In this document: positions 2,083 through 50,602 of the stretch, piece after piece
How the letters are laid out: every line of letters starts with the position of its first letter
How positions within the stretch are numbered: the stretch's first letter is position 1
From: Cyanobacteria bacterium REEB446
GTDB lineage: Bacteria; Cyanobacteriota; Vampirovibrionia; LMEP-6097
Direction of reading: 5' to 3'
DNA: 64,000 nt
Assembly: GCA_018970325.1 (NCBI GenBank)
Contig: JAGWWP010000002.1
Coordinates: forward strand, 24,693-88,692
Made by a program: the position numbers and the translations under genes
Notes under the pieces: model-generated
What the model was told of the DNA's origin: nothing
Seen by the model: the letters and a program-made list of their open reading frames with translations, nothing else
Database searches by the model: none

Positions 2083-2120
2083 GGGACGAAAACGCAGAAA
2101 TTGAAGATTGCGAGTAGTCC
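2083..2120 (+). repeat. Fragment of the RPE-like palindromic mini-repeat (3' half type ...gacgaaaacgcagaaattgaagattgcgagtagtcc)
   Basis: It matches the 3' half of the elements at 7241-7293 and 19620-19667 and begins immediately after the stop codon of the upstream CDS. Confidence 0.6.
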
Positions 2121-2172
2121 TAATGAAGTCTTTTTATTAATGATAAAATCTATATTTCAGATAACATAAATT

Positions 2173-3267
2173 ATGCATTACCAAGGGATTATTCATAGAT
2201 ATAAAAAATATTTACCAGTGACTGAGACTACGCCAATCGTTAGTCTCTGTGAGGGGCGTACGCCACTTGTGGAAGCAATGAATATAGCTAAGCTTACTGG
2301 CGTGAAGGGCTTAAAAGTTTTCTGTAAAATAGAGGGACTTAATCCATCTGGATCTTTTAAAGATAGAGGGATGACTATGGCTGTGTCTAAGGCTGTAGAG
2401 AAAGGGGCTAAAAAAATCATCTGCGCAAGTACTGGTAATACTAGTGCTGCTGCTGCTGCTTATGCCTCAAGAGTAAGATCTATGGGCTATGAAATGGAAT
2501 CTTTTGTAATTATTCCAGCAGGTTATGTGGCACTTGGAAAGCTCTCACAGGCTATGATCTATGGCTCTAAGGTTATTCAAGTTAGGGGTAATTTTGATGA
2601 TGCTTTAAATATAGTGAAATCTCTATCTGAAAATTATCCTATTGAGTTAGTTAATTCATTAAATCCTTATCGTATTGAGGGACAGAAGACCGGAGCTTTT
2701 GAGCTAGTGGATGAGCTTGGGGAAAGTCCAGATTATCTCTTTTTGCCTGTAGGTAATGCAGGTAATATAACAGCTTACTGGAAAGGTTTTAAAGAGTATG
2801 TTCCAGAGAATCAGAAAAGACCTCATATGTATGGCTTTCAAGCAGAGGGGGCTTCACCTATAGTAAATAAGCGAGTTTTTGATAAACCAGAAACTATAGC
2901 TACCGCTATTCGTATTGGTAATCCAGCGAGCTGGGAGCAGGCTAATAGGGCTTTAAGTGAGTCTAATGGTCATATAGATTCAGTTACAGATCGTGAGATA
3001 TTAGACGCTTATAAACTCTTGCATCAAATGGATGGTATAGCCTGCGAGCCCTCTTCTGCGACTGGAGTTGCTGGTCTTTTAAAAGCTGCTAAGCAAGGCT
3101 TAGTAAAAGAGAATTCTACTGTGGTTTGTATACTCACTGGTAATGGTTTGAAAGATCCTTCTACTGCGATTAAAGAAGTGGATATGGATGAAAATGAGAC
3201 TTATCCAGCTGATGCTAATGAGATTATTAAGGTGCTTGGACTGGAGAGTCTTTCTGGGGTAGTTTAA
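2173..3267 (+). CDS. thrC: Threonine synthase
   Basis: 364 aa with the PLP-lysine motif LNPSGSFKDRGMT and a ThrC-like fold pattern throughout. Confidence 0.9.
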   Translation: MHYQGIIHRYKKYLPVTETTPIVSLCEGRTPLVEAMNIAKLTGVKGLKVFCKIEGLNPSGSFKDRGMTMAVSKAVEKGAKKIICASTGNTSAAAAAYASRVRSMGYEMESFVIIPAGYVALGKLSQAMIYGSKVIQVRGNFDDALNIVKSLSENYPIELVNSLNPYRIEGQKTGAFELVDELGESPDYLFLPVGNAGNITAYWKGFKEYVPENQKRPHMYGFQAEGASPIVNKRVFDKPETIATAIRIGNPASWEQANRALSESNGHIDSVTDREILDAYKLLHQMDGIACEPSSATGVAGLLKAAKQGLVKENSTVVCILTGNGLKDPSTAIKEVDMDENETYPADANEIIKVLGLESLSGVV

Positions 3268-4592
3268 GTAGATCCATGGATTATTAATAATCTCAAGCTC
3301 AATTCCAAATCCCCAGTCTCTAAAACTCTTCTTTCTAAGTTTGGCACAGCTGAGTTCAGAAGCTGTTTATAAAAGGCTTTGAGCTCATATAGGCATTGAT
3401 TTTTAAAATCGCCCTGTATTTTATATTGGTCAGCTAAAAAATAATCTAATTCATAGAGGTCATTTAGATTGTGGCTAAATTTTTCTAGAGCTTTTATTTG
3501 AGATGCTTCTGGCTTGGTATTGTTGAACTTAAGAAATTTTTCTTTAAGGATAATTTTTCTTACTAATGTTTCTCTGGATTTATTTAGAGATTCATAGTTA
3601 GCTAAATAATCAGGATCATTCTCTATAATATGTTTAAAATTTTTCAGCAGCATTTCTTGTTCCTGAGAGAGTTTGAATCTTGCCAGTTGATTTATCTGCT
3701 GTTGAATTTCTAGTTCAGTTTTAAATACATTTGTTAGAAAAAGCAGAGTAATTAGACTAAGTAGAATAAGTGAATTTGGAAGATTTATACTGCTCCGAAT
3801 CTTAGTTAAAAAAGGTGTTGTAGATTTTTTTGTTATTGATTGCTTCTCATTGACTGGGTTTGACATGATCTTATCTGCTTCTTTCTTTTGCTCGTGACAT
3901 TTAGGGAAAAATAGGCTGATAACAGTTCCTTGATTAATCAGGGAGCTGATATCAAGTTCTATATCATTATATTTAAGTATCTCGGCCACGGATTTTAAAC
4001 CATGCCTCGAAGTTCTAGGTCTTAGATTTTTAAATGATTCTTCTAGATCTAGGTTGAAACTGTTTTCTAGTGATAATATTTTGAGCTTCCAGTAATCTTT
4101 AGAATCATCAAGTGTGATTTTGACCTCTCCATTACTGTGTTTTAGAGCATTTTCGATTAAATTAAAAACAGCTTTAGCTATTAAAGAGAAGTTTCCATAT
4201 ATTAGGGCGTTATTTTGGTATATATTATCCTCAGTTTTAACTCTTTTTAAAGTAAAGATTTCCATTAACTCAAGCTCTATGAGATCTTTTAAATCTATAA
4301 TGGATTTTGAATAATTGTGAAACTCTGCTTGAGTAGTATTCTGTGAATCTTGTATCTCTGTAAAAATCTCTCTAAAGTGATATTCACTGCCTTTTAAGAA
4401 ACTTATTAAATGATTTAAATCGTTAAATTCTTCGCTGCTAAGAACAGATTTTCCTTCTTCGGAGAGCTTTTTACTAATATCTTTTAATGAGCTATTCGCT
4501 AAGCTGAATAGATTTGCAGAGTCGTGAATATATGAACTTGTGAGTGCAAGTAAGTTATGAAGCTGATCTCTACTAAGTTTTTTAGCTTTCAT
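3264..4592 (-). CDS. Hypothetical membrane protein with an HATPase_c-like (GHKL ATPase) segment and atypical topology
   Basis: 442 aa. An N-box-like LIENALKHSNGEVKI is followed by a G-rich HGLKSV segment, then a TM helix (LILLSLITLLFLTNVF) after the ATPase-like part. No clear H-box. Last gene of the minus-strand cluster 3264-9700. Confidence 0.3.
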   Translation of the reverse strand: MKAKKLSRDQLHNLLALTSSYIHDSANLFSLANSSLKDISKKLSEEGKSVLSSEEFNDLNHLISFLKGSEYHFREIFTEIQDSQNTTQAEFHNYSKSIIDLKDLIELELMEIFTLKRVKTEDNIYQNNALIYGNFSLIAKAVFNLIENALKHSNGEVKITLDDSKDYWKLKILSLENSFNLDLEESFKNLRPRTSRHGLKSVAEILKYNDIELDISSLINQGTVISLFFPKCHEQKKEADKIMSNPVNEKQSITKKSTTPFLTKIRSSINLPNSLILLSLITLLFLTNVFKTELEIQQQINQLARFKLSQEQEMLLKNFKHIIENDPDYLANYESLNKSRETLVRKIILKEKFLKFNNTKPEASQIKALEKFSHNLNDLYELDYFLADQYKIQGDFKNQCLYELKAFYKQLLNSAVPNLERRVLETGDLELSLRLLIIHGST

Positions 4593-4602
4593 TTTTTTGA
4601 TT

Positions 4603-5775
4603 TTACTGTTTTTTTAGCTTGAATATAAAAAATATCTGAATAACACTTAAGAGAAGTAAGCTGAGTATGGAAAAACATATATAAATAAAATAACTTAAAT
4701 TGTTAAAGCTAAACTCTGAGAGGATCTTGTAGAGAAAGTTAAAGCCGAATGGCAGAATGCTTACTCCTAAAAGAATTTTTAGGCTATAGGTGAAAACACT
4801 AAAAGGGTTTTTATTATTAAGAAGAAATATTGGTGAAAATACTTTAGCGAAAATAACTAAAATAATGCTGCCCAGTAGGCTTATAATAAATATAAACTGT
4901 GAAACACTGTCAATGAAAGCAAGTATCAATCCGGGAAAGTAGCCATAATTATTTAATATCGCTGTCCAGCTCTCAATAAGCAGTGTTTCGTGGTTGTGGA
5001 AGATAGAAAAGCCCAGTGATTCATTATTAAGTAGGCTGTTAAATCCATTATTTATTAAGCTAAAGCCACTGAAAATAAATTCCCAGATACTCTCCAGCAT
5101 TAATAGCAAGGCTATGCTTAGAAATAAGCTACTGAAAAGGCTTTTAAATTCATGATTATCTTTTTGAGTGCTTTTAGAATTACTTTTGAAAAAAGCTATG
5201 TCTAGAATTTTAAACATACTAGAGAGTATTAATAATACGAGAATAATTTTCTGTAAAAATGAGAAAGTACTCTCTGCAAGTGGTGTTCTCATTATTTTTT
5301 CTAGAATTATCATTAAATTAGTATCAGTAGAGCTATTCGTTAAATCTTCATTTAGGAAATTTATACAGTCGATATGTGCCTGTAAATTACTATTTAAAAT
5401 CTCTTCACTAGTCTTACGCCTTTGATATTCAAAAAAACCAGTAAAAGTGTCTCTAAGAGCGTTATTGACACCATCTTGTACTTGATATTTCACGTTAATT
5501 ATCCCATCAGCTAAGCCGATAATTTTATTAGCCGCACCTAGTGTGAAAGTTCTTTCTATAGTCTGTTTACTAAGTTCGGTAGATCTTAAAATGAAATCAT
5601 CAGGTGTTTCTAAGGGTGCTAGGGGACTGCTACCTGTATGAAAATATATGCGGCGATTATCTATTTCAGGATATTTATTTACTTGCCCGTCAGCTATTCT
5701 GATAATATCGCCAATCTTGAAAGCATGACTAGGAGGGCTAATTAGGGAAAATAAAAGTAGGAAAATTATCAGCAT
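4603..5775 (-). CDS. Hypothetical polytopic membrane protein (signal peptide, ~170-aa periplasmic segment, 5-6 C-terminal TM helices)
   Basis: 390 aa. N-terminal MLIIFLLLFSLISPPSHA looks signal-like and the C-terminal half is strongly hydrophobic. No recognisable catalytic motif. Confidence 0.45.
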   Translation of the reverse strand: MLIIFLLLFSLISPPSHAFKIGDIIRIADGQVNKYPEIDNRRIYFHTGSSPLAPLETPDDFILRSTELSKQTIERTFTLGAANKIIGLADGIINVKYQVQDGVNNALRDTFTGFFEYQRRKTSEEILNSNLQAHIDCINFLNEDLTNSSTDTNLMIILEKIMRTPLAESTFSFLQKIILVLLILSSMFKILDIAFFKSNSKSTQKDNHEFKSLFSSLFLSIALLLMLESIWEFIFSGFSLINNGFNSLLNNESLGFSIFHNHETLLIESWTAILNNYGYFPGLILAFIDSVSQFIFIISLLGSIILVIFAKVFSPIFLLNNKNPFSVFTYSLKILLGVSILPFGFNFLYKILSEFSFNNLSYFIYICFSILSLLLLSVIQIFFIFKLKKQ

Positions 5776-5776
5776 T

Positions 5777-6376
5777 TTAATTCTCTTTTATGGATAAGAT
5801 TTTTTCTAATTTTTGAGTCTGAGTATTTATAAGTATTTCTATGATTAAATTACGTGAAGAATTTTCTGTATCAGTGAAAGTTTCCTTCCCAAAGCAGATA
5901 ATTTTTACTAAGACTTTATCTATATTCTCAGTGTAAATTTTATTTATTTGAAACTCACTGTTGATCTTGTTTTGACTACGAGCTTCTATTTCTTGTATGA
6001 GGTACTCCGTGAAGAAAGTCTCTTCAGTATTCTCTTTTAGCCACTTGGAGTGTTCTTCCTGTCTGTTTGTGTATTTAGAAAATAGCTTAGAGAGATATGC
6101 TTGAGTGAAATTTTCTATATTGAAATCACTGCTTCCATTGATAGATAAAGCTTTTTGGGCTCTAGTGTTTTTAGAATTATCCTTGTTTTTTAAAACACTG
6201 CTATCAATAAAAACTCTATTTCTACTGTTTAAAAGCTTATTACAGTTATGAATTTCACACATTGCTAATGCTAGAGATATAGATAGAAAGAGGATTATAC
6301 TTAGCAGTATTTTTACTATCGAAGGCAGGTAAAGTATTTTAAGCAAATATTTTAAAGAGTTATATTTTAAGACCAT
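5777..6376 (-). CDS. Hypothetical bitopic membrane protein
   Basis: 199 aa with a single N-terminal TM (LPSIVKILLSIILFLSISLALA). It overlaps the upstream gene's end by 10 nt, which indicates translational coupling within the cluster. Confidence 0.4.
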   Translation of the reverse strand: MVLKYNSLKYLLKILYLPSIVKILLSIILFLSISLALAMCEIHNCNKLLNSRNRVFIDSSVLKNKDNSKNTRAQKALSINGSSDFNIENFTQAYLSKLFSKYTNRQEEHSKWLKENTEETFFTEYLIQEIEARSQNKINSEFQINKIYTENIDKVLVKIICFGKETFTDTENSSRNLIIEILINTQTQKLEKILSIKEN

Positions 6377-8700
6377 ATATTTTTCTCCTGCATTTTTTCT
6401 AGTGTCTGTCTTGCGATGGACATATTATCGAGAAAGCTGGCATGGCTAGAATCTTTTAGATTAGCAGCTTTAATTTCATTAAAGATTAACTGCCTCTCTC
6501 TCACGACTTCTGCACTGGAGTTCGTTAATATTAGTTCATCTTGATCTGCTTTAAATTTAATTAAACCAGAGAATTTAGAAGTTTTAAGTAGTGCTGTACC
6601 CCTGTCTTTAATCTCTTGCGATTCTAGTAGCTTCAGTTCTCGCTCATTAAGATTTAAGTGGCTGCCCAACTCAGCTTTATCTGTATTTTCTTTACATTGA
6701 AAGATGAAACTGCTTGCAGCAGAGGAGTGTATATCACGAGTTAAATCTGAGGGTTTTTGAGAAATAGTCCATAAGCCTAAATTCATAGCTCTGCCAGTTC
6801 GAGCTAGCTTGCTGATAAGCTTTTTACTAAGAGGGTTCTCTTCTTCATAAATTAATTTCCAAGCTTCATCTATCACTAAATAAATGGTGTTGTCTAGTTC
6901 TCTTACAGCGTTCTCTATTTGCATGAAAATATTTTCTAAGCAGAAGTTAGTCAGGGCTTTGTTTTTTTCGATACTATGAAAATTAACTAAGCTTATATTT
7001 TTTTTAAATAATATTAAGTTCTTAAATGACTCTGGGGAATTATAAATTTCCCCACCCATATAAGCAGTAAAAAATTCCCAGCCTAGTAGTGTACTATCTA
7101 AAATAACAAACTTGGCATTAGAGCACTGTTGCCGAACTCCAATTTCTGCGTTTTCGTTGTCCTCATGATCCTCATGTACCCGCAGTACATTGCGGTCATT
7201 CGTCCTCCTCAGCCTTGAACTTGCACGTTCGGCAACAGTGCTATTCGGGGATTGCTCGCAATCTTCAATTCTTGCGTTTTCGTCGTCCTCGTGATTTAAA
7301 CTTCTTTTAATTAAAAGCTTTACTGCAAGTGACTTTCCTGAGCCAGAGTCACCTATGAAATTAATAGATTTATTATTGCAGAATTGAGTATTTTCAGGTG
7401 TGAAATATACTAGGGATCTATCATCTAATTTATAACCAATTAATGCTCCATTTTCCATGCAGGTTCTATCTTCTAGAAATGGATTAAAATAATTCAGGTC
7501 TTTAGCTGTTATTAAGAATGGGAGATTTTGTATTTTTTCTGTATAGAGTTTTCTTTGCAAATATTTAGCTTCATTGAAACTAAGTAGTGACTGACTAGTA
7601 GATATTTTGAGGAGATTTTTTTCTAGTATTTCTTTATTAGGGCTGTATAATTTCAGGATAATTTGCAGGTTTGCGATGAAGCTATTATCATAGATCTCAT
7701 GGTAAAGAGACTTTAGGGAATCTAAGTGACTTTTATTACTAAGAGCTGCTCTGGTAAAGCTTTGAAGACAATTTATCTTATGGTTAATTAGTGATTTATC
7801 TCGATTCAGATTTCGTTCTTGTAAAATGATGCATAATTCACTAGTGCAGCTTAAGCTTTTCAGGAAATTATTTAATGATTCGAAGCTAGCATTTTCAAGC
7901 TCAAGGTCTTTTAGAGAGAGGCATTTAATATATTCATGTGTCTTAATATAATTAATTCTTTCTTTGAAATCAGTCAAATCATTCTGTTTGTCTGAAATGA
8001 TCTCAAAACTTATTTTATTTGCAACACTAAAGAGCTGTAGGTGATAATTTATTTGCTGTAAAGTCTTTTCTGAATTACTGTTCACCTCAATTTCTAAAAA
8101 CCTACATGGATGAAATATCTTCTCTTCATATTGGGAAGCCCTTTCTTTAGCTGGATTCATTTCTTGAATATTTTCGGCATTGATGAAAATTCTGAATTTA
8201 ATTTTGGTTTTTGAATTTCGATATTCTAGTATATTTTCTAAAAGCTTCTGCCAGAGATGGTTTAATTGATCTATTTCAAGTTTGCTTGCTGTAGAGTAGT
8301 TAATTAATTTTTTAATTCTATATCTTTTACTGTAGGATTTTACTTTTTGAGAGAGAGGCAGAAAGTTTAGTTTTAAGGCTGATTTATTAAATAGAGATTT
8401 AGTATTTCTATCTAAGCAAGACTGTGATTGGTTTTGAGGTTTAACTAATAACGGATAACTTATATGTTTTATAAAGAAACTATTTTCGCTAAGATTCAGT
8501 TTAGTACTGCGATAGCAGATCCAGAGAAAGGTAAAGCTGCTTAGAATCCATATGGCAAGTGGGCTATCTATTTGTAGAGCTAGCAGCTGTATTAAATAGA
8601 GATATAATCCTAGAAATAAAACTCCTAGTGAAATTTCTTTTAAGCTGAGTCCACTAAAAATTTCTATATCTTTTTTTAAGGCTAAGTGTTTTTTTATCAT
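6367..8700 (-). CDS. Membrane-anchored P-loop ATPase of the VirB4/TraC - HerA/FtsK superfamily; carries two in-frame RPE-like insertions
   Basis: 777 aa. Two N-terminal TM helices are followed by Walker A INFIGDSGSGKSLA, Walker B YLVIDEAWKL and a downstream ARTGRAMNLGLWTISQKPSDL segment (VirB4-like RK..TQ motif). The repeat-encoded insert ...ERASSRLRRTNDRNVLRVHEDHEDNENAEIGVRQQC... lies between Walker A and Walker B. Confidence 0.55.
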   Translation of the reverse strand: MIKKHLALKKDIEIFSGLSLKEISLGVLFLGLYLYLIQLLALQIDSPLAIWILSSFTFLWICYRSTKLNLSENSFFIKHISYPLLVKPQNQSQSCLDRNTKSLFNKSALKLNFLPLSQKVKSYSKRYRIKKLINYSTASKLEIDQLNHLWQKLLENILEYRNSKTKIKFRIFINAENIQEMNPAKERASQYEEKIFHPCRFLEIEVNSNSEKTLQQINYHLQLFSVANKISFEIISDKQNDLTDFKERINYIKTHEYIKCLSLKDLELENASFESLNNFLKSLSCTSELCIILQERNLNRDKSLINHKINCLQSFTRAALSNKSHLDSLKSLYHEIYDNSFIANLQIILKLYSPNKEILEKNLLKISTSQSLLSFNEAKYLQRKLYTEKIQNLPFLITAKDLNYFNPFLEDRTCMENGALIGYKLDDRSLVYFTPENTQFCNNKSINFIGDSGSGKSLAVKLLIKRSLNHEDDENARIEDCEQSPNSTVAERASSRLRRTNDRNVLRVHEDHEDNENAEIGVRQQCSNAKFVILDSTLLGWEFFTAYMGGEIYNSPESFKNLILFKKNISLVNFHSIEKNKALTNFCLENIFMQIENAVRELDNTIYLVIDEAWKLIYEEENPLSKKLISKLARTGRAMNLGLWTISQKPSDLTRDIHSSAASSFIFQCKENTDKAELGSHLNLNERELKLLESQEIKDRGTALLKTSKFSGLIKFKADQDELILTNSSAEVVRERQLIFNEIKAANLKDSSHASFLDNMSIARQTLEKMQEKNIWS
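7124..7240 (-). repeat. Full-length RPE-like palindromic element (117 bp) inserted in-frame in the ATPase gene
   Basis: It has a perfect 13-bp terminal inverted repeat, cactgttgccgaa ... ttcggcaacagtg. The core gaaaacgcagaaattggagtt / gcaagttcaaggctgaggaggacgaatgaccgc is shared with the other copies. Confidence 0.8.
7241..7293 (-). repeat. Second, partial RPE-like element in tandem with the first (3' half type)
   Basis: Its reverse complement, cacgaggacgacgaaaacgcaagaattgaagattgcgagcaatccccgaatag, matches the 2083-2120 and 19620-19667 variants. Confidence 0.7.
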
Positions 8701-8722
8701 TGGAGTTGTGTGCCAGTCTTTT

Positions 8723-9175
8723 TTATTTGATTTGTATCGCTGCCATGCCGCGAGATAAATTACTCAGTAAGTTATAGCCGCCGATGAAAATCGCGATTAA
8801 GGGTGATATTTGTTGTAGTAATTCAGCTGCCTGAGCTATAAGAGCAGAAAAACGCTCAAAACTATCTAGGACACCTGAATTTAAGTAAGAATCGGAAAAA
8901 ACTACTGAGACATTAAAATCTGAAGCCAGATCTTTAATGATTTTAAAAAGTATAGGTAAGATTTGAATTAAGAATATTGCAAAAACCGTGGTGCCAACTG
9001 AAGTTAAGATGCTGTAATGGTGAGTCTTGGCTTTAAACATATGAGTCGAAATGAGATTAACACTTGGGCTTGTTAATACTTTTATGCGATCAAAATATTT
9101 ATGAATGAGTTTATGGCTCAGGTAATGAATGCCGATGTAGCTTATGGTACTAATAGTAATTATGCTGATTTGCAT
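8723..9175 (-). CDS. Small hydrophobic membrane protein (pilin/VirB2-like topology is possible; no motif support)
   Basis: 150 aa with a hydrophobic N-terminus, a central TM (TTVFAIFLIQILPILF) and a hydrophobic C-terminal segment. Lies immediately upstream of the ATPase in the same operon. Confidence 0.35.
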   Translation of the reverse strand: MQISIITISTISYIGIHYLSHKLIHKYFDRIKVLTSPSVNLISTHMFKAKTHHYSILTSVGTTVFAIFLIQILPILFKIIKDLASDFNVSVVFSDSYLNSGVLDSFERFSALIAQAAELLQQISPLIAIFIGGYNLLSNLSRGMAAIQIK

Positions 9176-9178
9176 GAT

Positions 9179-19518: not shown

Positions 19519-19667
19519 CTGAAATTGAAGTTCGGTAATAGTACCCAAAGGGGACTGCTCACAAACGTGCAAGGGAAACGCAGAAATTGAAATTCGGCAA
19601 TAGTACAAGGGGAATGCTCACAAACGAACAAGGGAAACGCAGAAATTGGAGTTTGCGAGCAGTCCCC
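19519..19667 (+). repeat. Tandem array of about three degenerate RPE-like elements between fba and rnj
   Basis: gaaattgaagttcggtaatagtac...ggggactgctcacaaacgtgcaagggaaacgcagaaattgaaattcggcaatagtacaaggggaatgctcacaaacgaacaagggaaacgcagaaattggagtttgcgagcagtcccc. The palindromic termini are ggggaNtgctcacaaac / gtttgcgagcagtcccc. The last copy abuts or overlaps the rnj stop codon. Confidence 0.7.
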
Positions 19668-23472: not shown

Positions 23473-25086
23473 TTAGTGTCTGTGAGAGGTTTCTAGTAGG
23501 GCTGAATTTAATCTTTCGATGATTTTTTCTTTACCTAAAAGTACTGCAATAAACCCTAGTTCAGGCCCACTAGTTTTAGCACTAATGGCTACGCGAATTG
23601 GGAAAAATAGTTTTTTACCTTTGAGGTTTAATTTCTCACCAATAGAATTAATACCATTTTTAATTGAATCTTGATCAGCAAAATCTAGAGAACCACTTTC
23701 GATAAGGGATATGAATTCATGGATAACTTCTTTACCTTCTTCGGCGATCGTAATTAAAGTACTATCATCAAGTTTAAAGTCTTCAAAAAAATAGTTAATA
23801 TGTTCATCTATCTGTTCAAATTTATCTAGGCTTTCTTGAATGGATTCAATTATTAACTGGATTTGAGATGAATTAAATAGAGAATTATTTTCTAAATTGA
23901 ATCTTGAAAATCTAGAAACATGAGTTAATATTTCTTCATAGTTTAGTTTGCTTATGTAGTCACGGTTATACCAGTTTAATTTTTGAATATCGTAGATAGC
24001 TGGGCTTTTACTAACGCTAGTTATCTGAAAATCTTCAGCAGCTTCAGTGATAGTAAATATTTCACCATACTTAGCTGAATTATAACTCGTACCTAAAAGG
24101 TAATTAACGAGAGCCTTTGCTAAATAGCCTTGAGTTTTATAAGTGTTAACAGAAGCGATATCACCATGTTTACGTTTAGAGAGCTTCTGTTTATCCTTCG
24201 TGAAAATTAAAGGTAGGTGCCCAAATTCGGGAATCGGAAAATTTAAAGCTTCATAAATAGCGATCTGTTTCGCTGTATTACTTATATGATCTTCTCCTCT
24301 CAGAATGTGTGAAATCTGCATTTCATAATCATCTATCACTACTGCAAAATTATAGAGAACCTGCCCTGTGGATTTCTGGATAACTGGGTCTCCGCCAAGG
24401 TCTCTAGTATTAATGGATACTTCACCTCTGATTAAATCTAACCAAGTGATTACATGGTCTGCTCCTAGATTTAATCTAACGACATAGGGCTTCCCTTCTT
24501 TAAGTAATTTTTCTGAATCATCTTTGGAGACATCTCTTGATCGATTATCATATTTCTCTATCTCTTTACGAGCTTTCTGAGCTTCACGCATAGCGTCTAA
24601 TTCTTCTACTGTCGCAAAACATCTATAAGCTTTACCCTCATTAATTAATCTTTCTATATAACTGCTATGCACGGCTTCTCTGAGTGATTGTCTGACTATT
24701 CCATCTTCACCTAAACCTACGAGAGTTTCTCGGGCACGTAGCGGAACTCCAATTTCTGCGTTTTCGTCGTCCTCATGATCCTCATGCACACCTAGTGCAC
24801 TGCGGTCTTTCGTCCTCCTCAGCCTTGAACTTGTTCGTTCGGCTACGTGCCCTTCTGGCGTATCCCAAGAGATATTTAACCATTTAAACCCTTCTAATAT
24901 TTCTTGAGTAAACTGTTCTTCGCTTCTTTGTCTATCAGTATCTTCTAGTCTAAAGAAAAACTCACCTTGGTGTTTTTTTGCGAAAAGTACATTGTAGAGA
25001 GCTGTTCTGACGGTACCTAAGTGTAGATTACCTGTTGGGCTAGGTGCTATTCTGGTTCTTACTTTAGGAAAGGCGTTTAAGGGCAT
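23473..25086 (-). CDS. gltX: Glutamyl-tRNA synthetase carrying an in-frame RPE-like insertion
   Basis: HIGH region RIAPSPTGNLHLGTVRTAL and KMSKS region KLSKRKHGD are present. An extra ~45 aa, ...HVAERTSSRLRRTKDRSALGVHEDHEDDENAEIGVPLRARETLVGLGEDG..., sits between the class I catalytic-core motifs and is encoded by the repeat at 24732-24852. Confidence 0.85.
   Translation of the reverse strand: MPLNAFPKVRTRIAPSPTGNLHLGTVRTALYNVLFAKKHQGEFFFRLEDTDRQRSEEQFTQEILEGFKWLNISWDTPEGHVAERTSSRLRRTKDRSALGVHEDHEDDENAEIGVPLRARETLVGLGEDGIVRQSLREAVHSSYIERLINEGKAYRCFATVEELDAMREAQKARKEIEKYDNRSRDVSKDDSEKLLKEGKPYVVRLNLGADHVITWLDLIRGEVSINTRDLGGDPVIQKSTGQVLYNFAVVIDDYEMQISHILRGEDHISNTAKQIAIYEALNFPIPEFGHLPLIFTKDKQKLSKRKHGDIASVNTYKTQGYLAKALVNYLLGTSYNSAKYGEIFTITEAAEDFQITSVSKSPAIYDIQKLNWYNRDYISKLNYEEILTHVSRFSRFNLENNSLFNSSQIQLIIESIQESLDKFEQIDEHINYFFEDFKLDDSTLITIAEEGKEVIHEFISLIESGSLDFADQDSIKNGINSIGEKLNLKGKKLFFPIRVAISAKTSGPELGFIAVLLGKEKIIERLNSALLETSHRH
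24732..24852 (-). repeat. Full-length RPE-like element (~121 bp) in-frame within gltX
   Basis: A 16-bp TIR, gggcacgtagcggaac ... gttcggctacgtgccc, bounds the shared core gttcaaggctgaggaggacgaaagaccgcagtgcac...catgaggatcatgaggacgacgaaaacgcagaaattggagtt (reverse complement). Confidence 0.8.
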
Positions 25087-26745: not shown

Positions 26746-27933
26746 TTAGCTTTTATGGAATTCTAATAAGGCCTTCGCTAATATTCGAGCGGTTTTAGTT
26801 TGAAAGCTTTTTTTGCAGAGTAAGTCTGATTCTAATGGATGAATAAGATAGCCAAGCTCGATTAAAACACTTATGGTGTCAGGATTCTCTCTAAGTACGT
26901 GAAGGTTTTGTTTATAAATTCCGGCGAAATCTTGTTTAGATGAGGCTTTAAGTTTAAGAGAGATAAATTTAGCGAGATCGAAACTATGCTCATGAAAATA
27001 ATGACAAGAAAATCCACTTTCTTTATTTGGATCTCTGCCATCGGGCAAAGCGTTATGGTGCAGGGAAATAAATAAATTACATTTATTTTTCTTAGAGATC
27101 CTTACGCGTTCACTTAAACTCTTCTCTGTATCATGGTTTCGAGTAAGTATAGTTTTTACTCCTTGATGATTTAATTCTGTTGCGAGTTTTATAGCTAGGC
27201 TTAAATTTAAATCTTTTTCAAATATGCCTTTAGGAGAGGTAGCTCCTATTTGGGAGCCGCCGTGACCAGGGTCTATGCAAACCAAAAGAGGCATTTCACT
27301 AAATGTGAATGAGATATTAAGCACTTGATTCTTGAATTTAATTTTATGATTTATTACCGGCTTTTGAAATTTAATATCGAAGATAATATTTGAGATTTGT
27401 TCTATTTTGATTTCAGGATTTAACTCTGAATAATGAATCCAGTCTAAATCTTGCTCCATGATGCCTAAATCTAATCTATAGTGATAAGCGTTAATTTTTT
27501 TTAATTTGTAATCAGGAAGTGAATTTAATGGAATAGATATATCTTTATTACTTATTAAGATGCTCCGTAGAATATTACCTGAACTAGCAGGTTCGTTAAT
27601 AGCCCCTTGAGTAGAAGTTCTTATAGTTTTATGATTTTTATATTCTGAATTGAGTGTGTTGAAGGCTTGGTAAGGATGAGCATAAGCTATAGGGTTTGGA
27701 TTGTTATTAATATTTAGAACACCATAAATCCTGCGTGTGAAGGACTTTCCGTCGATATTGATTCGTATTTTATTCTCACCGAGTTTGAGTCGAATTAGTT
27801 TACAGAAATTACCATTTTTCTCAAGCTGGATAGCTGAATGGTTTATTAGACAAGAGAGTCGAGCTGAGCCAAGTATGAAAATCTCTTTACTATCAGTTTC
27901 ATGTCCTTCTGGAGGATAGGCTAACATTGGCAA
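26746..27933 (-). CDS. N-acetylmuramoyl-L-alanine amidase (Amidase_3 family) with an N-terminal targeting domain
   Basis: The C-terminal VCIDPGHGG...GATSPKG...E...LHHNA... pattern is the zinc amidase_3 signature. Confidence 0.75.
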   Translation of the reverse strand: MPMLAYPPEGHETDSKEIFILGSARLSCLINHSAIQLEKNGNFCKLIRLKLGENKIRINIDGKSFTRRIYGVLNINNNPNPIAYAHPYQAFNTLNSEYKNHKTIRTSTQGAINEPASSGNILRSILISNKDISIPLNSLPDYKLKKINAYHYRLDLGIMEQDLDWIHYSELNPEIKIEQISNIIFDIKFQKPVINHKIKFKNQVLNISFTFSEMPLLVCIDPGHGGSQIGATSPKGIFEKDLNLSLAIKLATELNHQGVKTILTRNHDTEKSLSERVRISKKNKCNLFISLHHNALPDGRDPNKESGFSCHYFHEHSFDLAKFISLKLKASSKQDFAGIYKQNLHVLRENPDTISVLIELGYLIHPLESDLLCKKSFQTKTARILAKALLEFHKS

Positions 27934-29439: not shown

Positions 29440-29544
29440 TTTTTTTGATTTATTTATAATTTAGTGATTTTTTCTTAACTTAACCTTTATTTTCTTTTGA
29501 TACTTGTAAGCCTAAGATGAGACTGTCTCAAGGGGTGTTTTCTT

Positions 29545-31023: not shown

Positions 31024-31075
31024 AGGGGCGTGTAGCTGATGAAAACACAGAAATTGGAGTTCCGCTACACATGCC
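31024..31075 (+). repeat. Short remnant of the RPE-like element
   Basis: ggggcgtgtagctgatgaaaacacagaaattggagttccgctacacatgcc contains the conserved core with a mini-palindromic flank (gtgtagc / gctacac). Confidence 0.55.
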
Positions 31076-31079
31076 ATGA

Positions 31080-38447: not shown

Positions 38448-38454
38448 TGCTAGA

Positions 38455-38512
38455 GACCGCTGTACAACTTGCATTTTCAAGACTGAGGAGAACGAATGAC
38501 CGCAATGTACTC
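38455..38512 (+). repeat. Partial RPE-like element (5' half type) between pmbA and tRNA-Pro
   Basis: gagaccgctgtacaacttgcattttcaagactgaggagaacgaatgaccgcaatgtac matches the 5' half of the copy at 40094-40151. Confidence 0.65.
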
Positions 38513-38533
38513 TATTTCTTTAATTAATAAAAA

Positions 38534-40093: not shown

Positions 40094-40289
40094 GAGACCA
40101 CTGCACAACGTGCAGTTTCAAGGCTGAGGAGGACGAATGACCGCAGTGTACGGCTAATTTCCAGCGATGCCGAGCATGCGACATTAATGTTATATGCGAG
40201 CAAGCGGAAATACAAGCTTGATTTATCAAGCTTACATGAGGATCATGAGGACGACGAAAACGCAGAAAATGGAGTTGTGCAATGGTCTC
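40094..40289 (+). repeat. Composite RPE-like element split by a ~75-bp nested insertion; 16-bp TIR gagaccaYtgcacaac
   Basis: The 5' part is gagaccactgcacaacgtgcagtttcaaggctgaggaggacgaatgaccgcagtgtac. An unrelated 40152-40224 segment follows, containing a perfect 20-bp palindrome aagcttgatttatcaagctt. The 3' part is catgaggatcatgaggacgacgaaaacgcagaaaatggagttgtgcaatggtctc. In other copies the two halves are contiguous. Confidence 0.7.
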
Positions 40290-42196
40290 TAAGAGTATTC
40301 TTTTAAAAGCTGCTGAATTTCTCTAAGTAGTCTTCCAATATTTTCTTCATCTTTATTTTTTTCTGCTTCCTGTAATTCTTTATCTAACTTACGTTTGAGG
40401 ATTTCTGATTTTTGTTTTCTTAAAACTGAAATTATTTCATTAAAACGAGTCAGGTATTGTTTTTTATCAGATTCTAATTCCATCGCTATTTCAGCTAAGT
40501 CACTAGAGTATTTAAGGTCTTCAAGTGATTCATGATTTTTAAGTTTTTTAAATTTACTATTAGTGTCATCATCGGGATTTTCAAAGCTTACATCTACTAA
40601 AGCTGAGAGTATAATCTGATGTTCTTCTTTATTTAAACTGTATTCATTTGCCATAAACTCTTCTAGAAGTATTCTGTCGTCAAGCATAATAGCTAAAAGC
40701 TCTATGTCAAACCTGCTTAAGGGATCTAAGTTAATTGAAGAATGTTTTTTATGGTTTTGATTTTGCGTTGTGAAAGAGTGCTGAGTATTAGCTTCTGTAG
40801 GCTTGCTGTGATTAATAAAAGGAGTTGAATTACCACTGTTATTAGTTCCAGTTACTGCAAATTCCCTAGAAAGATTTTTAAACTCTTTCCTGATCTGTTC
40901 TTCAAGAATATTACTACTGAGATCCAGTCTTGCAGCTAGTTTCTGTATATAAGCATTTAGTTCGATTTTATTATTAATAAAATACAGGAAGCGAGACATT
41001 TTAGAAATAAAGTTAGCTTTTTCTCTGGGGCCAAATTCTTCTTTTTTAAATTCTGATATTAATTTATCTGTCTTGTAGTCGATAAATGATTTAGCATTTT
41101 TAATTTCAAGCTCAAAATTACTATTGCCAAAGAGTTTTATAAAATCATCTGGATCTTTAGCTGTTTGTAAATCTATGACTTTAATTTCAGGATTCAGTTC
41201 AGCAGCTATTTGCATGATAACTTCAAAAGCCCTTTCCTTAGCTAATTCACCAGCCTTATCACTATCTAAGCAGAGATAAATACTTTTACTTGACGAGTAT
41301 TTTAGTAAAAGCTTGGCTTGTTTAGGCGTAAGTGCTGTTCCCTGGTTGGCGACTGTATTCTTAAAGCCCTCTTTGTAAAGTGCTATTTGATCAAAGTAGC
41401 CTTCAACTAAAATGACGAAATTCTTTTCCTTAATAGCTTTCTTTGCAAGTGAAAGCCCAAATAGTTCATCACCTTTATGATATATATCGGTTTCTGGAGA
41501 ATTAATATATTTAGGAGCCTCTGAATTATTCTCTAAAATCCTTGCCCCGAAGCCGATAACTTCATCCTTCTCATTAGTAATCGGGATCATTAGCCTATCT
41601 CTGAAACGATCATAATATTTCCCTGATTTTTCATGATGAATGGCAAGCCCTGATTTAAAAATCTCCTCTTCACTAATTTTTAATTTTCCAGTTAAGTGTT
41701 TGACTAAAAATCCCCAATCATCTTTAGATGTCGGTGAATAACCGATTCTGAAATTCTTAATCGTATTTAAATCTATCTGCCTTTCGCTGAGATAATTTCT
41801 GCACAGCTCAGCAGATTCAGCGCCTAAAAGTTTTTCATGATAATAATCGGCTGTTACTGAGTAAATTTCTAAATATTCATTCTGTAATTTTTGTTTACTG
41901 ATATTCTCTGGATGCTGATTTAAAGTTACTCCATATTTTAAGGCTAAGTCTTTTAGAGTTTCAGAAAAATCCTTATTATGGTATTCAGACCAGAACTTAA
42001 AAACGTCTCCTCCGGCACCACAGGCAAAGCATTTATATATGCCTTTTTGTGAGCTGATATGCATTGAGGGCTTAGTGTCATTATGAAAAGGGCATTTAGC
42101 GACATAGCTAGCTCCAGCTCTTTTCACTGGAATATGATCAGCGATAAGTTCTACTATGTCAGCTTTCTCTTTAATTTCATTGATTGACGATGACAT
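40289..42196 (-). CDS. dnaG: DNA primase
   Basis: N-terminal zinc ribbon CPFHNDTKPSMHIS...YKCFACGAGGDV followed by TOPRIM-domain acidic motifs. Confidence 0.85.
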   Translation of the reverse strand: MSSSINEIKEKADIVELIADHIPVKRAGASYVAKCPFHNDTKPSMHISSQKGIYKCFACGAGGDVFKFWSEYHNKDFSETLKDLALKYGVTLNQHPENISKQKLQNEYLEIYSVTADYYHEKLLGAESAELCRNYLSERQIDLNTIKNFRIGYSPTSKDDWGFLVKHLTGKLKISEEEIFKSGLAIHHEKSGKYYDRFRDRLMIPITNEKDEVIGFGARILENNSEAPKYINSPETDIYHKGDELFGLSLAKKAIKEKNFVILVEGYFDQIALYKEGFKNTVANQGTALTPKQAKLLLKYSSSKSIYLCLDSDKAGELAKERAFEVIMQIAAELNPEIKVIDLQTAKDPDDFIKLFGNSNFELEIKNAKSFIDYKTDKLISEFKKEEFGPREKANFISKMSRFLYFINNKIELNAYIQKLAARLDLSSNILEEQIRKEFKNLSREFAVTGTNNSGNSTPFINHSKPTEANTQHSFTTQNQNHKKHSSINLDPLSRFDIELLAIMLDDRILLEEFMANEYSLNKEEHQIILSALVDVSFENPDDDTNSKFKKLKNHESLEDLKYSSDLAEIAMELESDKKQYLTRFNEIISVLRKQKSEILKRKLDKELQEAEKNKDEENIGRLLREIQQLLKEYS

Positions 42197-45164: not shown

Positions 45165-45199
45165 GCCTCCGATAATATTAGGCGATTGTTGAAATTCTT

Positions 45200-48098: not shown

Positions 48099-48997
48099 TA
48101 ATTACAGACTCAATTCTAAATTATATTGATACTAGCCCAAAAAAGCTAATTACAATTGTCGGACCTACCTGTACTGGGAAAACTGATATAGCTATAGAGC
48201 TTGCAAAAAAATTTAAGACAGAGATTATTAATGCTGATAGTCGTTTGGTTTTTAAAGAAATGGATATAGGTACGGCGAAGCCTTCTTCTGATGAACTAAA
48301 GAGAGTAAAGCATCATTTGGTGAACCTTAAATCGATTACAGAAGCTTATTCGGCAGGTGATTATCAAAAGGATTTTGATAATGTAGTCAAAAATATATGG
48401 AAGCTAGATCCAGAAAAGAAAATTATAGTAGTGGGCGGCACTGGTCTATATATTAAAGCTGCTTTAGAAAATTTAGAAATGCCCGCAGTGAATACTAATC
48501 AAGTTTTAAGAGATGAACTGAATCAAAAATCTCTAGATGAGCTGTTACTGATGCTTAGGGAAAATGATTCAAATGCTTTAGCTTTAATAGATGTTCAGAA
48601 TAAAGTACGGGTGATTAGAGCTTTAGAGTTAGTTATTAGTACGGGACAACCTTTAAGTGAGCTCAGAACTAAAAGCCGAGAAGCTCGTTATGACTCTCTG
48701 TATATTGGTTTAGATTTTAAGAGACGGGAAGATCTCTATGATCTAATCAATACAAGGGTTTTAGGTATGATAAAAAGAGGTTTAGTTGATGAAGTTAAGG
48801 CTTTAATTAATAAATATGGCAGGGTGAAGACTATAGACAGCACTATCGGGTATAGAGAGGTCGCTGATTGCCTTTCAGGGCTTATAAGTTTAGATGAAGC
48901 TGTAAGTGAAATACAGTTAAGAACTAGAAGGTATGCGAAGAGGCAGATGACTTGGTTTCGGGCTAATCCAGAGATTCAGTGGTTTTATCGTGAATGA
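48092..48997 (+). CDS. miaA: tRNA dimethylallyltransferase
   Basis: P-loop IVGPTCTGKTDIAIELAK with a MiaA/IPP-transferase pattern. Confidence 0.85.
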   Translation: MALITDSILNYIDTSPKKLITIVGPTCTGKTDIAIELAKKFKTEIINADSRLVFKEMDIGTAKPSSDELKRVKHHLVNLKSITEAYSAGDYQKDFDNVVKNIWKLDPEKKIIVVGGTGLYIKAALENLEMPAVNTNQVLRDELNQKSLDELLLMLRENDSNALALIDVQNKVRVIRALELVISTGQPLSELRTKSREARYDSLYIGLDFKRREDLYDLINTRVLGMIKRGLVDEVKALINKYGRVKTIDSTIGYREVADCLSGLISLDEAVSEIQLRTRRYAKRQMTWFRANPEIQWFYRE

Positions 48998-49024
48998 TGA
49001 TCGGTGATTTTATTTTTTGCGTTA

Positions 49025-50602
49025 TTACGCACTTGGTATTAGTCTTTGAAAAATTTGAATATAGTAATCATCTTCGACGAAAACATAACGATTGTAAATT
49101 AAGCTTTTACCATCAGGACTCCAGTGTATGCCATTGATTGGCGCTTCTCTGCACTGTTGTAGAGCTTCAATTTCTGCGTTTTCGTCGTCTCCATTGATGT
49201 TAATTGTATTGCCATCTTGCGCGTTAACTAAATATATCTGGTTGTTAGACACTGCTGAAATATACTTATCATCAGGGCTGAGATTGAATTGTGACTGGAC
49301 AGAGTATTTGAAATTTGTTATTTGTTTAACAGGCTGATTTGTGATTGTATTTTTAGTATTTTCAGCACTGTTCACTGAGTAGATTTGAACGATACCATTA
49401 TCATCTTTCATTAGAAAATAGATATGGCTTCCATCTGCTGAGCTGCGTAGCCTAAAACGTGGTCCCTGAAGCCCAGGGTATTTCCTATCTGTAGTAAAAG
49501 TAATTCTTCTTTGTGTGAATCCTGCTGGTACATTAGGTCTGCTATTTAAACTCCCTTCTAGTGGTTTATCTGTAAGTGATTGAGTTATATCATTTGGAAT
49601 ATCTGCTATAAAAACTTCTGTAACTAAAGTCCCATCTAGTGAACGGACATTTCCTTGAAAGGCTATGGCTCGTGTCTGCTGTGAACCATTGTGAACAGTG
49701 CTATCGTCTTTCGTGTAACCGTTTTTACCCAGCCAGCACTCATCGAAAGCTCGTTCTATTTCATCACTACCGAATTTAGGATTTTCTGTAACCTCAGCTG
49801 CGACTACCGCGAAGTAAGTTCCTCTGAAATTCTCTTCAGGGCACTGCTCGCGAACTCCAATTTCTGCGTTTTCGCCCGCCTCATGATCCTCATGAATATT
49901 CTCTATCATCGTCATCACGCCGATAGTCCTCAAGTCTTTTCTTTCACTTGAAGAAGTTTTTTCTAAACATTCTATAAGGTAATCGTTATAGGTAAAGCTA
50001 ATCCACTTGCCATCAGCACTCCAAGTATGAGCATGGGTTCCACCTCTTAAAGCTCCTTTGGTAAGTGGTTCTTGAATATTCCTACCTTCCGCATGATAAC
50101 ACTGCTGCCGAACTCCAATTTCTGCGTTTTCGTTGTCCTCATGATCCTCATGTACCTTGAGTACATTGCGGTCATTCGTCCTCTTCAGCCTTGAACTTGC
50201 ACGTTTGGTAACAGTGTCATTGTAAGATGATTGCGAAACTCCAATTTCTGCGTTTTCGCCCGCCTCATGACTCCCTGAAATAATCGCCCCGAATCTTCTC
50301 GTGAAGCTATAAGGTTTTTCTTCGTCGCAATTTAAAAGACCGTGAATGAAAATGATGCTGTCATTAACAGGGTTCCAAGCTGCTGCCCCTACCCCCGGTC
50401 CATAGATACTTTGATTTTTGGTTTTATAGAGTTCAATAATTTCTTTAGTCACAATATTTAACTTACAGATACTTCCAGTGCGGCTTATGTGAGTATCATC
50501 GTTGCGAGTATCGAAGACTAGCCACTTGCCGTCTGGGGAGAATATTTGTGTGGCATTGAGAGTGTGACCGTGTTTCCCGTTTGTTAATTGTATTTCGTGC
50601 AT
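49025..50602 (-). CDS. Beta-propeller (TolB/PD40-like) hypothetical protein carrying four in-frame RPE-like insertions
   Basis: Repeated SPDGKW / SADGKW / SPDGKS blade motifs. Inserts encode HEAGENAEIGV, KRASSRLKRTNDRNVLKVHEDHEDNENAEIGVRQQC, HEDHEAGENAEIGVREQC and DDENAEIEALQQC. Confidence 0.5.
   Translation of the reverse strand: MHEIQLTNGKHGHTLNATQIFSPDGKWLVFDTRNDDTHISRTGSICKLNIVTKEIIELYKTKNQSIYGPGVGAAAWNPVNDSIIFIHGLLNCDEEKPYSFTRRFGAIISGSHEAGENAEIGVSQSSYNDTVTKRASSRLKRTNDRNVLKVHEDHEDNENAEIGVRQQCYHAEGRNIQEPLTKGALRGGTHAHTWSADGKWISFTYNDYLIECLEKTSSSERKDLRTIGVMTMIENIHEDHEAGENAEIGVREQCPEENFRGTYFAVVAAEVTENPKFGSDEIERAFDECWLGKNGYTKDDSTVHNGSQQTRAIAFQGNVRSLDGTLVTEVFIADIPNDITQSLTDKPLEGSLNSRPNVPAGFTQRRITFTTDRKYPGLQGPRFRLRSSADGSHIYFLMKDDNGIVQIYSVNSAENTKNTITNQPVKQITNFKYSVQSQFNLSPDDKYISAVSNNQIYLVNAQDGNTININGDDENAEIEALQQCREAPINGIHWSPDGKSLIYNRYVFVEDDYYIQIFQRLIPSA
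49146..49197 (-). repeat. RPE-like fragment (copy 1 in the beta-propeller gene)
   Basis: ctctgcactgttgtagagcttcaatttctgcgttttcgtcgtctccattgat. Confidence 0.6.
49841..49905 (-). repeat. RPE-like half element (copy 2 in the beta-propeller gene)
   Basis: ggcactgctcgcgaactccaatttctgcgttttcgcccgcctcatgatcctcatgaatattc. Confidence 0.65.
50099..50215 (-). repeat. Full-length RPE-like element (copy 3 in the beta-propeller gene, 117 bp)
   Basis: cactgctgccgaactccaatttctgcgttttcgttgtcctcatgatcctcatgtaccttgagtacattgcggtcattcgtcctcttcagccttgaacttgcacgtttggtaacagtg. Near-identical to 7124-7240. Confidence 0.8.
50230..50275 (-). repeat. RPE-like half element (copy 4 in the beta-propeller gene)
   Basis: ttgcgaaactccaatttctgcgttttcgcccgcctcatgactccc. 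Confidence 0.6.

Follow-up and report, generated by a model that had tools for sequence, protein, structure and literature searches.

The stretch of 64,000 nt from Cyanobacteria bacterium REEB446 analysed here (contig JAGWWP010000002.1; the whole stretch is called the window) carries a dispersed repeat with a basic unit of 121 nt, bounded by terminal inverted repeats (TIRs) and by a 5-bp target-site duplication (TSD). It represents a new MITE (miniature inverted-repeat transposable element) family, and the evidence for its mobility is unusually clean, with sites found both empty and occupied among close relatives. About half of the copies lie inside genes, where they are read in a single frame as part of the host protein. 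Very probably, these are non-autonomous DNA transposons of a small Vampirovibrionia clade that reside in genes in the manner of the Rickettsia palindromic elements (RPEs).

Counts beyond the window come from related loci gathered by a 17-mer of the right arm (CAATTTCTGCGTTTTCG) with one genome per species. They are minimum values based on the matches listed (at least 112 stretches), and copy counts and ratios of left to right ends are therefore biased and not genome-wide. (Related loci are numbered with L and proteins with P below.) The 5-mers flanking the 121-nt boundaries agree on average at 3.31 of 5 positions; among 59 copies, the match is perfect in 15 and extends to at least four positions in 30. 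Moving the boundaries by 1–4 nt reduces the mean to 0.5–1.6 and the perfect matches to 0. The duplicated 5-mers have a GC content of 25%, and their position 2 is nearly always A or T. Element and TSD together make 126 nt, or 42 codons, and the long forms add 201 or 207 nt; because each sum is a multiple of three, insertion never shifts the reading frame of the host gene.

Three pairs of empty and occupied sites, from relatives about 92% identical to the window, reveal the target before and after insertion. In gltX, loci L113 and L114 (88% protein identity) have a single CAGAA in the sequence ..CCATCAGAAACT.., where the window reads ..CAGAA, the element and then GAGAAACT.., with CAGAA (24853–24857) on one side of the copy and GAGAA (24727–24731) on the other. 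At the 3' end of an amidase gene the situation is the opposite: the window has a single TTTTA and L115 has a 121-nt copy between two TTCTA. The site in the gene for an AAA_10 ATPase is empty in L129 and in seven orthologs (P0224 and P0225 among them). Since the target is single in the empty sites and doubled in the occupied ones, the element is mobile, and the view of the first-pass annotation that this is selfish DNA tolerated inside genes is borne out. Small size, TIRs, a fixed 5-bp TSD, many dispersed copies and insertion polymorphism between relatives are all found, and the only structural attribute of a MITE that did not turn up in the approximately 700 kb examined is a parent insertion sequence.

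From left to right, the unit consists of a TIR of 16–17 nt, a 37-nt arm (CGAACAAGTTCAAGGCTGAGGAGGACGAATGACCGCAGT), a central stem-loop, a second 37-nt arm (ATGAGGATCATGAGGACGACGAAAACGCAGAAATTGGA) and the right TIR, and 50 distinct full copies align nearly free of gaps. The centre is a 5-bp stem with a 5-nt loop (GTAC NNNNN GTAC). Both arms are purine-rich and contain a common direct repeat, TGAGGA(G/C)GACGAA..CGCAG; no pairing is formed between them, so that the element is a palindrome only in part. An extra central module of 81 nt distinguishes the long form (196 nt in the window, 202 nt elsewhere). This module is never found outside copies of the family, so the idea that it is an independent, nested MITE was rejected. 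Short forms of 44–74 nt keep both TIRs. The element is small and has no transposase gene of its own, its sole open frame being a 40-residue peptide. The first-pass annotation had the sites right and overlooked the 5-bp direct repeats and the exact length of the full copies, which is 121 nt at 7122–7242, 24732–24852 and 50098–50218. Its description of the element as palindromic is correct for the 16-bp terminal stem and the 5-bp central stem, which do pair, but not for the arms. Likewise, the TIRs do vary from copy to copy as it had stated, but this variation is a continuum of compensated variants and not just four types.

The stems change in sequence while they retain their pairing. Over the 50 copies, column identity is 94–100% in the arms, 46–92% in the terminal stem and 36–57% in the loop, and there are 36 distinct left TIR sequences and 24 loops. 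Even so, 93.9% of the cells in the two stems are paired (92% in the terminal stem, 100% in the central one); 15 of the 16 terminal pairs have changed on both sides, as have two of the five central ones, and sliding the partners against each other as a control lowers pairing to 26–54%. When the left TIR arm of a copy is compared with the complement of a right arm, the mean number of differing positions is 1.84 for its own right arm and 5.84 for those of other copies. In the orthologous gltX copies of the window and L115, three pairs of the terminal stem and one of the central stem show compensated differences and most of the loop has changed, but the arms differ at only 2 of 74 positions. The folding prediction that had been proposed as a check gave a long terminal stem together with a hairpin in the centre (z-scores -4.7 to -6.5). 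The shuffle statistics on covariation are inflated by the relatedness of the sequences. The compensated stem could possibly reflect several transposases that co-evolve with the ends, quasi-palindrome correction by template switching, or a step in which the ends pair.

Conservation of the arms does not appear to be a matter of the encoded peptide. Intergenic copies differ from the consensus by 4.5% and intragenic ones by 3.0%, the excess of change at third codon positions is weak, and the ratios of synonymous to non-synonymous changes are 18:30 inside genes and 18:49 outside. Purifying selection on the peptide is thus unsupported as the cause, since the intergenic copies are nearly as conserved.

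In the window, which has a GC content of about 35%, the family stands out far above chance. Five matches to CATGAGGATCATGAGGAC are found with up to three mismatches (0.03 expected), four to a 34-mer of the left core (0.00 expected) and 12 to TTCTGCGTTTTC with up to one mismatch (0.5 expected), and the same families were picked up by a repeat finder, among them a 180-nt composite present three times. The first-pass annotation had claimed at least 14 copies or fragments and listed 13 sites; when all are read in one common orientation, the 13 prove to belong to one family. An nhmmer profile gives 13 hits in the window that cover 12 of them, and the one it misses, 16778–16841, has both ends and was confirmed by eye. 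In total there are 14 sites in the 64 kb; by extrapolation from this density alone, a genome of a few megabases would hold several hundred copies. Six of the listed sites are intergenic, lying outside long open reading frames (ORFs). The other seven lie on the coding strand of three minus-strand genes and, as had been noted, all share one frame and contain no stop codon. A weak match at 58415, inside hsdM, is probably due to chance. Searching the window for known RNA families (Rfam, gathering score) gave two tRNAs only and no match to the element.

Why do nearly all the genic copies face the same way? Over the related loci, 105 sense copies or fragments and one antisense copy lie inside long ORFs, which is about half of the approximately 205 copies, and all the sense copies share one frame, ..SSRLRRTNDRSVLxVHEDHEDDENAEIGV.. 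(the copy at 7122–7242 reads as TVAERASSRLRRTNDRNVLRVHEDHEDNENAEIGVRQQ). Tryptic peptides of this insert would begin with TNDR... and VHEDHEDDENAEIGV.... The full copies inside genes are sense in 25 of 25 cases (binomial probability about 4e-7). Avoidance of stop codons cannot be the sole cause of this rule, since the sense frame is stop-free in 46 of the 50 full copies and one antisense frame in 37 of 50. A bias in insertion, including one coupled to transcription, is rejected as well, as copies between tandem genes are co-oriented with their neighbours in 19 cases and anti-oriented in 19. The sense peptide is extremely hydrophilic (grand average of hydropathicity, GRAVY, -1.44; 40% charged residues; no Cys), in contrast to the antisense peptide (-0.26; 12% charged). 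Because neither stops nor the direction of insertion explain the orientation rule and the sense peptide is hydrophilic, we infer that insertion takes place either way and is followed by selection on the peptide.

Where genes enter a copy in antisense orientation, they do so only at their extreme 3' ends. In the related genomes, 22 genes stop within -2 to +3 nt of the right end of an element that they enter antisense, and 11 of the 14 intergenic copies with both ends that abut the 3' end of a gene are antisense to it. In the window, the TAG stop codons of dnaG (40289–40291) and of the RNase J gene (19667–19669) straddle the outer end of a copy entered in this way. It would seem that insertions have redefined the C-termini of such genes.

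The host proteins are unrelated, and some are essential: they include GltX, RadA, Sua5/TsaC, the UDP-GlcNAc 2-epimerase WecB, a PMT_2 glycosyltransferase, DNA methyltransferases, HsdR and SNF2 helicases, and a single protein may contain up to four copies or fragments. In an AlphaFold2 model of GltX (63-sequence alignment, mean predicted local distance difference test score, pLDDT, 90.5), residues 81–116, which correspond to the insert, are coil with a pLDDT below 50, and this is the only internal stretch of low-confidence coil in the model. The insert is thus predicted to be a disordered loop. In alignments with orthologs, among them gltX products without the insert, it coincides with a loop of variable length, as the first-pass annotation had anticipated. 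One protein, P0139, joins the N-terminus of RadA through the element peptide to the C-terminus of a chorismate-binding enzyme and is probably a metagenome mis-assembly across two copies.

Many sites of the family differ between genomes that are only 7–8% apart. Among ATPase orthologs with 90–94% identity, the same site is found empty, as a remnant, as a short form, as a long form and in a recombined state. (The same protein shows an 18-residue presence/absence difference, KPQNQSQSCLDRNTKSLF, among orthologs at about 8388–8442, residues ~87–104, which is unrelated to the repeat family by eye.) In the window, the full copy of this gene is flanked by CGAAT (7243–7247) and CTAAT (7117–7121) and lies head-to-tail beside the 7247–7295 fragment, the flanking 5-mer of which was reused as the target. 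Such arrangements recur: of 88 copies with an intact left end, 16 are preceded by the right end of a copy on the same strand, mostly 5 nt away, and none by a copy on the opposite strand. Since neighbouring copies differ in their TIRs, they arose not by tandem duplication but by insertion one after another, each time with the flanking 5-mer as the target once more. Arrays are also lost. The beta-propeller gene of L059 is without the 49146 fragment and lacks 126 nt at 50098–50218, a loss due to recombination of two adjacent copies within their repeated right arms; both L059 and L131 show contraction of this kind, in frame and through recombination of direct repeats. Outside genes, the number of mini-units in the array at 19519 differs in L098 and L115, and a 44-nt mini-element of L115 corresponds in the window to an 11-nt footprint, GAGACTGTCTC (29519–29529). 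Other intergenic copies have been kept at orthologous sites.

The family is found only in a small Vampirovibrionia clade of the order Caenarcaniphilales, non-photosynthetic relatives of the cyanobacteria. All the related genomes are metagenome-assembled genomes (MAGs). At least 84 of the stretches matched by the 17-mer belong to five MAGs filed under Vampirovibrionia, Melainabacteria or Caenarcaniphilales and to one filed under Proteobacteria, which is evidently misbinned. The nhmmer profile gives 209 hits, of which 205 are in the window and these 84 loci (six genomes) and four, all weak, are in 28 unrelated loci. Syntenic stretches in several of the related genomes are about 92% identical to the window, which therefore comes from a sister species. 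The first-pass annotation had recognised that the host is RPE-like in its repeats and not a Rickettsia, based on the presence of hisA, hisZ, hisG, gap, fba and cysD; this gene content is confirmed, the last being a cysD-like PAPS reductase. It had also proposed that the mobile-element interpretation would fail if the copies were simply a protein motif conserved in unrelated taxa. A full HMMER search with the 42-residue peptide finds only 83 clusters among 1.84 billion representative proteins, many of them short ORFs called on non-coding copies, and GltX and ATPase orthologs exist without it; it is thus a peptide of this clade and no motif of proteins at large, and what is conserved is a nucleotide-level repeat with TIRs that occurs in non-coding DNA and in unrelated proteins alike. 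A word-index protein search with the same 42 residues returns 14 short hypothetical ORFs only, and those with a taxonomic name are from Vampirovibrionia or misbinned MAGs. In the related loci, non-coding copies are publicly annotated as "hypothetical proteins" of 44–66 aa (P0204–P0215).

Carriage by phages was considered and rejected. The only IMG/VR contig with true copies, L120 (IMGVR_UViG_3300042866_002883), has them at 3618–3663 and 10187–10276, inside hsdR and a SNF2 helicase gene, and encodes HsdR, SNF2 helicases and AAA ATPases, all of them defence-type genes. Although filed as viral, it is probably a host fragment with a defence island; the other 11 viral hits are chance matches to the 17-mer. 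No relevant report was found in the literature on the family or on MITEs in Melainabacteria, Vampirovibrionia or Caenarcaniphilales.

How would such a family spread and persist? Insertion would occur in either orientation and duplicate 5 bp of AT-rich target, presumably because a transposase acting in trans cuts the target in a staggered way. Selection would then remove those insertions that break or burden the protein, and the survivors inside genes would be the sense, in-frame class, situated in variable, probably surface-exposed loops and presumably neutral for the host. Copies antisense to a gene would persist only between genes or at extreme 3' ends. A genic copy is probably shielded from piecemeal decay, since only in-frame deletions would be tolerated there, and arrays would shrink by recombination between neighbouring copies. 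Several observations weigh against this explanation. The antisense frame that is open in so many full copies is used by none of them, which would need strong selection at the level of the peptide. (The term "intragenic" itself presupposes an open frame, as genes were called as long ORFs over 641 kb that are 87% coding.) Variable TIRs and a strongly conserved interior are the reverse of a typical MITE and fit poorly with a transposase that reads the TIR sequence. Nor was an autonomous partner or a transposase with matching ends found in the approximately 700 kb examined (the window and about 640 kb of related loci). No transposase is among the Pfam domains identified in 47 of the 53 ORFs of the window or called for the syntenic genes of L115, and a k-mer search for inverted repeats 0.6–3.5 kb apart brought up pairs of MITE copies, a few low-complexity repeats and essentially nothing else. 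Left and right ends 0.6–6 kb apart gave a single candidate, L058, which was dismissed as two short forms that flank HAD and RNase H genes. Finally, blastn of the long form against the 72,556 plasmids of a general plasmid database, as a search for plasmid or insertion-sequence similarity, gave no match.

In a rival reading, the element would move as a folded single-stranded intermediate of DNA or RNA, recognised by its conserved arms and the shape of its terminal and central stems instead of its TIR sequence; it would then be guided by structure, unlike a classical MITE. The pairing of both stems and its collapse in the slid controls, the closer match of each TIR to its own partner, the compensated pairs between the gltX orthologs, the hypervariable loop and the strong predicted folding speak in its favour. 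However, covariation of the ends would also be expected of any TIR subfamily that co-evolves with its transposase or is subject to template-switch correction, and the statistics are inflated as described. A TSD with a constant length of 5 bp is characteristic of DDE transposases, which act on double-stranded ends, and hairpin-guided systems (IS200/IS605, REP/RAYT, attC) are not known to leave a TSD. We consider a folded intermediate unlikely. Much the same doubt applies to a more elaborate version, in which recognition of shape and arms through a snap-back intermediate is combined with staggered 5-bp integration and with selection on the element itself for compatibility with translation: its one stop-free, highly hydrophilic frame and a length that is divisible by three once the TSD is counted would then be adaptations that make genes a safe harbour, in which copies are protected against decay. 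If true, transposon and host proteome would here have accommodated each other in a novel way, and the family would be a tractable model for the spread of coding palindromes of the RPE type.

Alternatively, the intergenic copies might have been domesticated as REP-like stabilisers of mRNA, terminators or protein-binding sites, and the family kept for that function. Intergenic copies lie within 30 nt of gene 3' ends more often than of 5' ends (53 vs. 23) and between convergent more often than divergent gene pairs (26 vs. 13), they fold strongly, their arms are conserved and several remain at orthologous sites. On the other hand, purifying selection against insertions in promoters would lead to just such a 3' bias, there is no preferred orientation between tandem genes, no T-run follows the stem, Rfam has no match, and among close relatives copies have decayed freely into short forms, mini-units and footprints, so that domestication appears decidedly improbable. 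It is hardly credible that the family belongs to the RPEs or was acquired from Rickettsiales. The behaviour is alike, namely that of a palindromic mini-element of about 100–150 bp with about half of its copies in ORFs and a single frame (PMC10969869; PMC2229807). But the host belongs to the Vampirovibrionia, no Rickettsia appears among the stretches listed for the 17-mer, the peptide is restricted to the clade, the plasmid database has no match, and the TSD is clear here and listed as unknown for RPEs. The opposite extreme, a conserved protein module under selection with the non-coding copies as pseudogene debris, would account for the strict use of one frame and for the slightly lower share of non-synonymous change inside genes. 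It is contradicted by the TIRs and TSDs that bound every full copy, by the orthologs with empty sites, by nearly equal nucleotide conservation at the three codon positions and in non-coding copies, by the predicted disorder of the GltX insert and by the absence of the peptide outside the clade, and its probability is very low indeed. A non-autonomous transposon family with selected residence inside genes accommodates these observations best. The copies in the window, their host genes and the related sites are collected in the table.

Table. Copies, fragments and target sites of the element in the window, with the genes that host them
Position	Strand	Feature	Context and remarks
2083..2121	+	Right-end fragment	Directly past the stop of a radical-SAM (CofH/MqnC-like) gene
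6367..8700	-	Host gene 1, AAA_10-like ATPase, 777 aa	Insert just past the Walker A motif (GDSGSGKS)
7122..7242	-	Full 121-nt copy	In the AAA_10 ATPase gene; TIR AGCACTGTTGCCGAAC / GTTCGGCAACAGTGCT
7247..7295	-	Right-end fragment of an older copy, other TIR (..GATTGCGAGCAATCCCC)	AAA_10 ATPase gene
16774..16841	+	Short form with internal deletion, both TIRs	Intergenic; conserved in L098 and L115
19514..19667	+	Array of ~2.5 mini-units of 59 nt (TIR + GCAAGGGAAACGCAGAAATTG + TIR)	Directly past the RNase J stop
23473..25086	-	Host gene 2, gltX, glutamyl-tRNA synthetase, 537 aa	
24732..24852	-	Full 121-nt copy	In gltX; TIR GGGCACGTAGCCGAAC / GTTCCGCTACGTGCCC
26751..26755		Empty target TTTTA	3' end of the amidase gene
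29519..29529		Footprint GAGACT-GTCTC	Extra remnant beyond the sites listed earlier
31024..31075	+	Short form with internal deletion, both TIRs	Flanked by convergent genes; retained in place in L010 and L115
38453..38513	+	Left half of a copy	TIR type as in 40094..40289
40094..40289	+	Long form, 196 nt, with 81-nt central module	TIR GAGACCACTGCACAAC / GTTGTGCAATGGTCTC
49025..50602	-	Host gene 3, DUF3748/PD40 beta-propeller, 525 aa	Four copies or fragments inside
49146..49197	-	Right-end fragment, in frame (NGDDENAEIEALQQ)	Missing from the L059 ortholog, net 27 nt
49841..49905	-	Right-half copy, in frame (NIHEDHEAGENAEIGVREQ)	Also present in the L059 ortholog
50098..50218	-	Full 121-nt copy	In the DUF3748 beta-propeller gene
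50230..50275	-	Right-end fragment	Head-to-tail with the 50098..50218 copy

The long form at 40094–40289 lies between the convergent rplT and dnaG genes, and the half copy at 38453–38513 lies 6 nt past the stop of a PmbA/TldD gene, beside a tRNA-Pro gene. The window has other features of note. Inverted repeats of 38 nt, 92% complementary and 311 nt apart (51574–51611 and 51923–51960), lie between an EamA transporter gene and a Fic gene; one similar arm occurs in L033, and the pair may be another MITE-like element with no relation to this family. At 9727–9758 and 17697–17728 there is a direct repeat of 32 nt with 94% identity (TGAAATTTTAAGGGGTCATTTTTCCCCAAAAA), made up of a hairpin and an A-run; read on the minus strand, the hairpin resembles a terminator and a T-run comes after it, and both copies are situated just 3' of a minus-strand gene. 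The AAA_10 ATPase, which resembles VirB4/TraC, belongs to a run of six minus-strand genes (3264–9700) that is conserved in the clade and in which the five genes around it have no Pfam match. Genes for a type I restriction-modification methylase (HsdM) and a BRO-N domain protein (58097–60387) adjoin hisZ and hisG.

Like the classical MITEs (Correia/NEMIS, RUP and, from cyanobacteria, Nezha and those of Anabaena; PMC10969869), the family is non-autonomous, has TIRs, a fixed TSD and many copies, gives rise to deletion derivatives and is polymorphic in its insertions between strains. In classical MITEs, however, the TIRs are conserved and match a known insertion sequence and the copies are mostly intergenic, whereas here the TIRs drift by compensated changes and it is the core that is conserved. 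Transposons of the Tn3 family have ends of about 38 bp that start with GGGG and end with TAAG, and they produce a 5-bp TSD in AT-rich targets. The present elements share the AT-rich 5-bp TSD and G-run ends with the Tn3-derived miniature elements (TIMEs), but they differ in that only 16–17 bp are inverted, beyond which the ends diverge, and in that the inner arms are direct repeats. No Tn3-type transposase was seen in the approximately 700 kb examined; the resemblance may serve as a lead only. Conserved hairpin structure combined with drifting sequence is also characteristic of attC sites and of the REP/BIME elements mobilised by RAYT (Y1) transposases, both recognised in the form of folded hairpins, and it recalls the covarying stems of the present family. 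REPs, however, are 20–40 nt long with GTAG or CGTC tags (PMC3733652), and the elements described here have 121 nt, a 5-bp TSD and no such tag at their ends; attC depends on an integron integrase and a cassette context, neither of which is present.

Residence inside genes narrows the comparison further. PARCELs are coding repeats with dyad symmetry in their DNA that move between genes, but they are tandem 25-residue domains of membrane or surface proteins and subject to horizontal transfer, unlike the single insertions into housekeeping enzymes, bounded by TIRs and TSDs, seen here. For the enterobacterial ERIC/IRU and RU elements (Delihas 2007, 2008) intragenic copies are the exception, whereas they make up about half of this family. 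In-frame fusions of MITEs are known, and reviews regard the RPEs as the furthest case (PMC10969869; PMC2229807). That palindromic mini-elements colonise housekeeping genes in frame has been seen as peculiar to Rickettsia and Wolbachia, with their reduced intracellular genomes; for the latter, the reference list of PMC2229807 includes a paper on protein-coding palindromic repeats by Ogata, Suhre and Claverie (2005). How the elements of these two groups insert has been unclear, since neither a TSD nor a transposase is known for them. The same behaviour is now found in an unrelated lineage, a non-photosynthetic sister group of the cyanobacteria with genes for histidine biosynthesis, glycolysis and sulfate assimilation, and plain TIRs, a 5-bp TSD and fresh presence/absence at about 92% identity make gene entry and survival in one orientation testable. 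There are practical consequences as well: intergenic copies end up as small hypothetical proteins in the output of gene callers, metagenome assemblies are probably broken or mis-joined at copies, and protein alignments of the clade contain inserts of 9–69 residues that are not phylogenetic signal.

The closest parallel therefore remains the RPEs themselves (RPE-1 and others; Ogata et al. 2000, 2002, cited in PMC10969869 and PMC2229807). In both cases a small, dispersed stem-loop element with TIRs has about half of its copies fused in frame into unrelated, often essential genes, in one frame and in places where a loop is tolerated; Rickettsia conorii has 44 RPE copies, around half of them in ORFs, and inserts are found in other Rickettsia and in RNA genes too (PMC10969869; PMC2229807). 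RPEs are listed with a length of 105–146 bp, a TIR of about 12 bp, a TSD of "?" and an ORF of "+" (PMC2229807, Table 1, Delihas). The present elements occur in a different phylum, have TIRs of 16–17 bp and a clear 5-bp TSD with pairs of empty and occupied sites, and their length with the TSD is an exact multiple of three. The gene content of the host (his, gap, fba and sulfate assimilation genes) gives no sign of the obligate intracellular life led by the hosts of RPEs. The family is thus RPE-like in behaviour but very probably not an RPE, being set apart by its host, the distribution of its peptide and its TSD.

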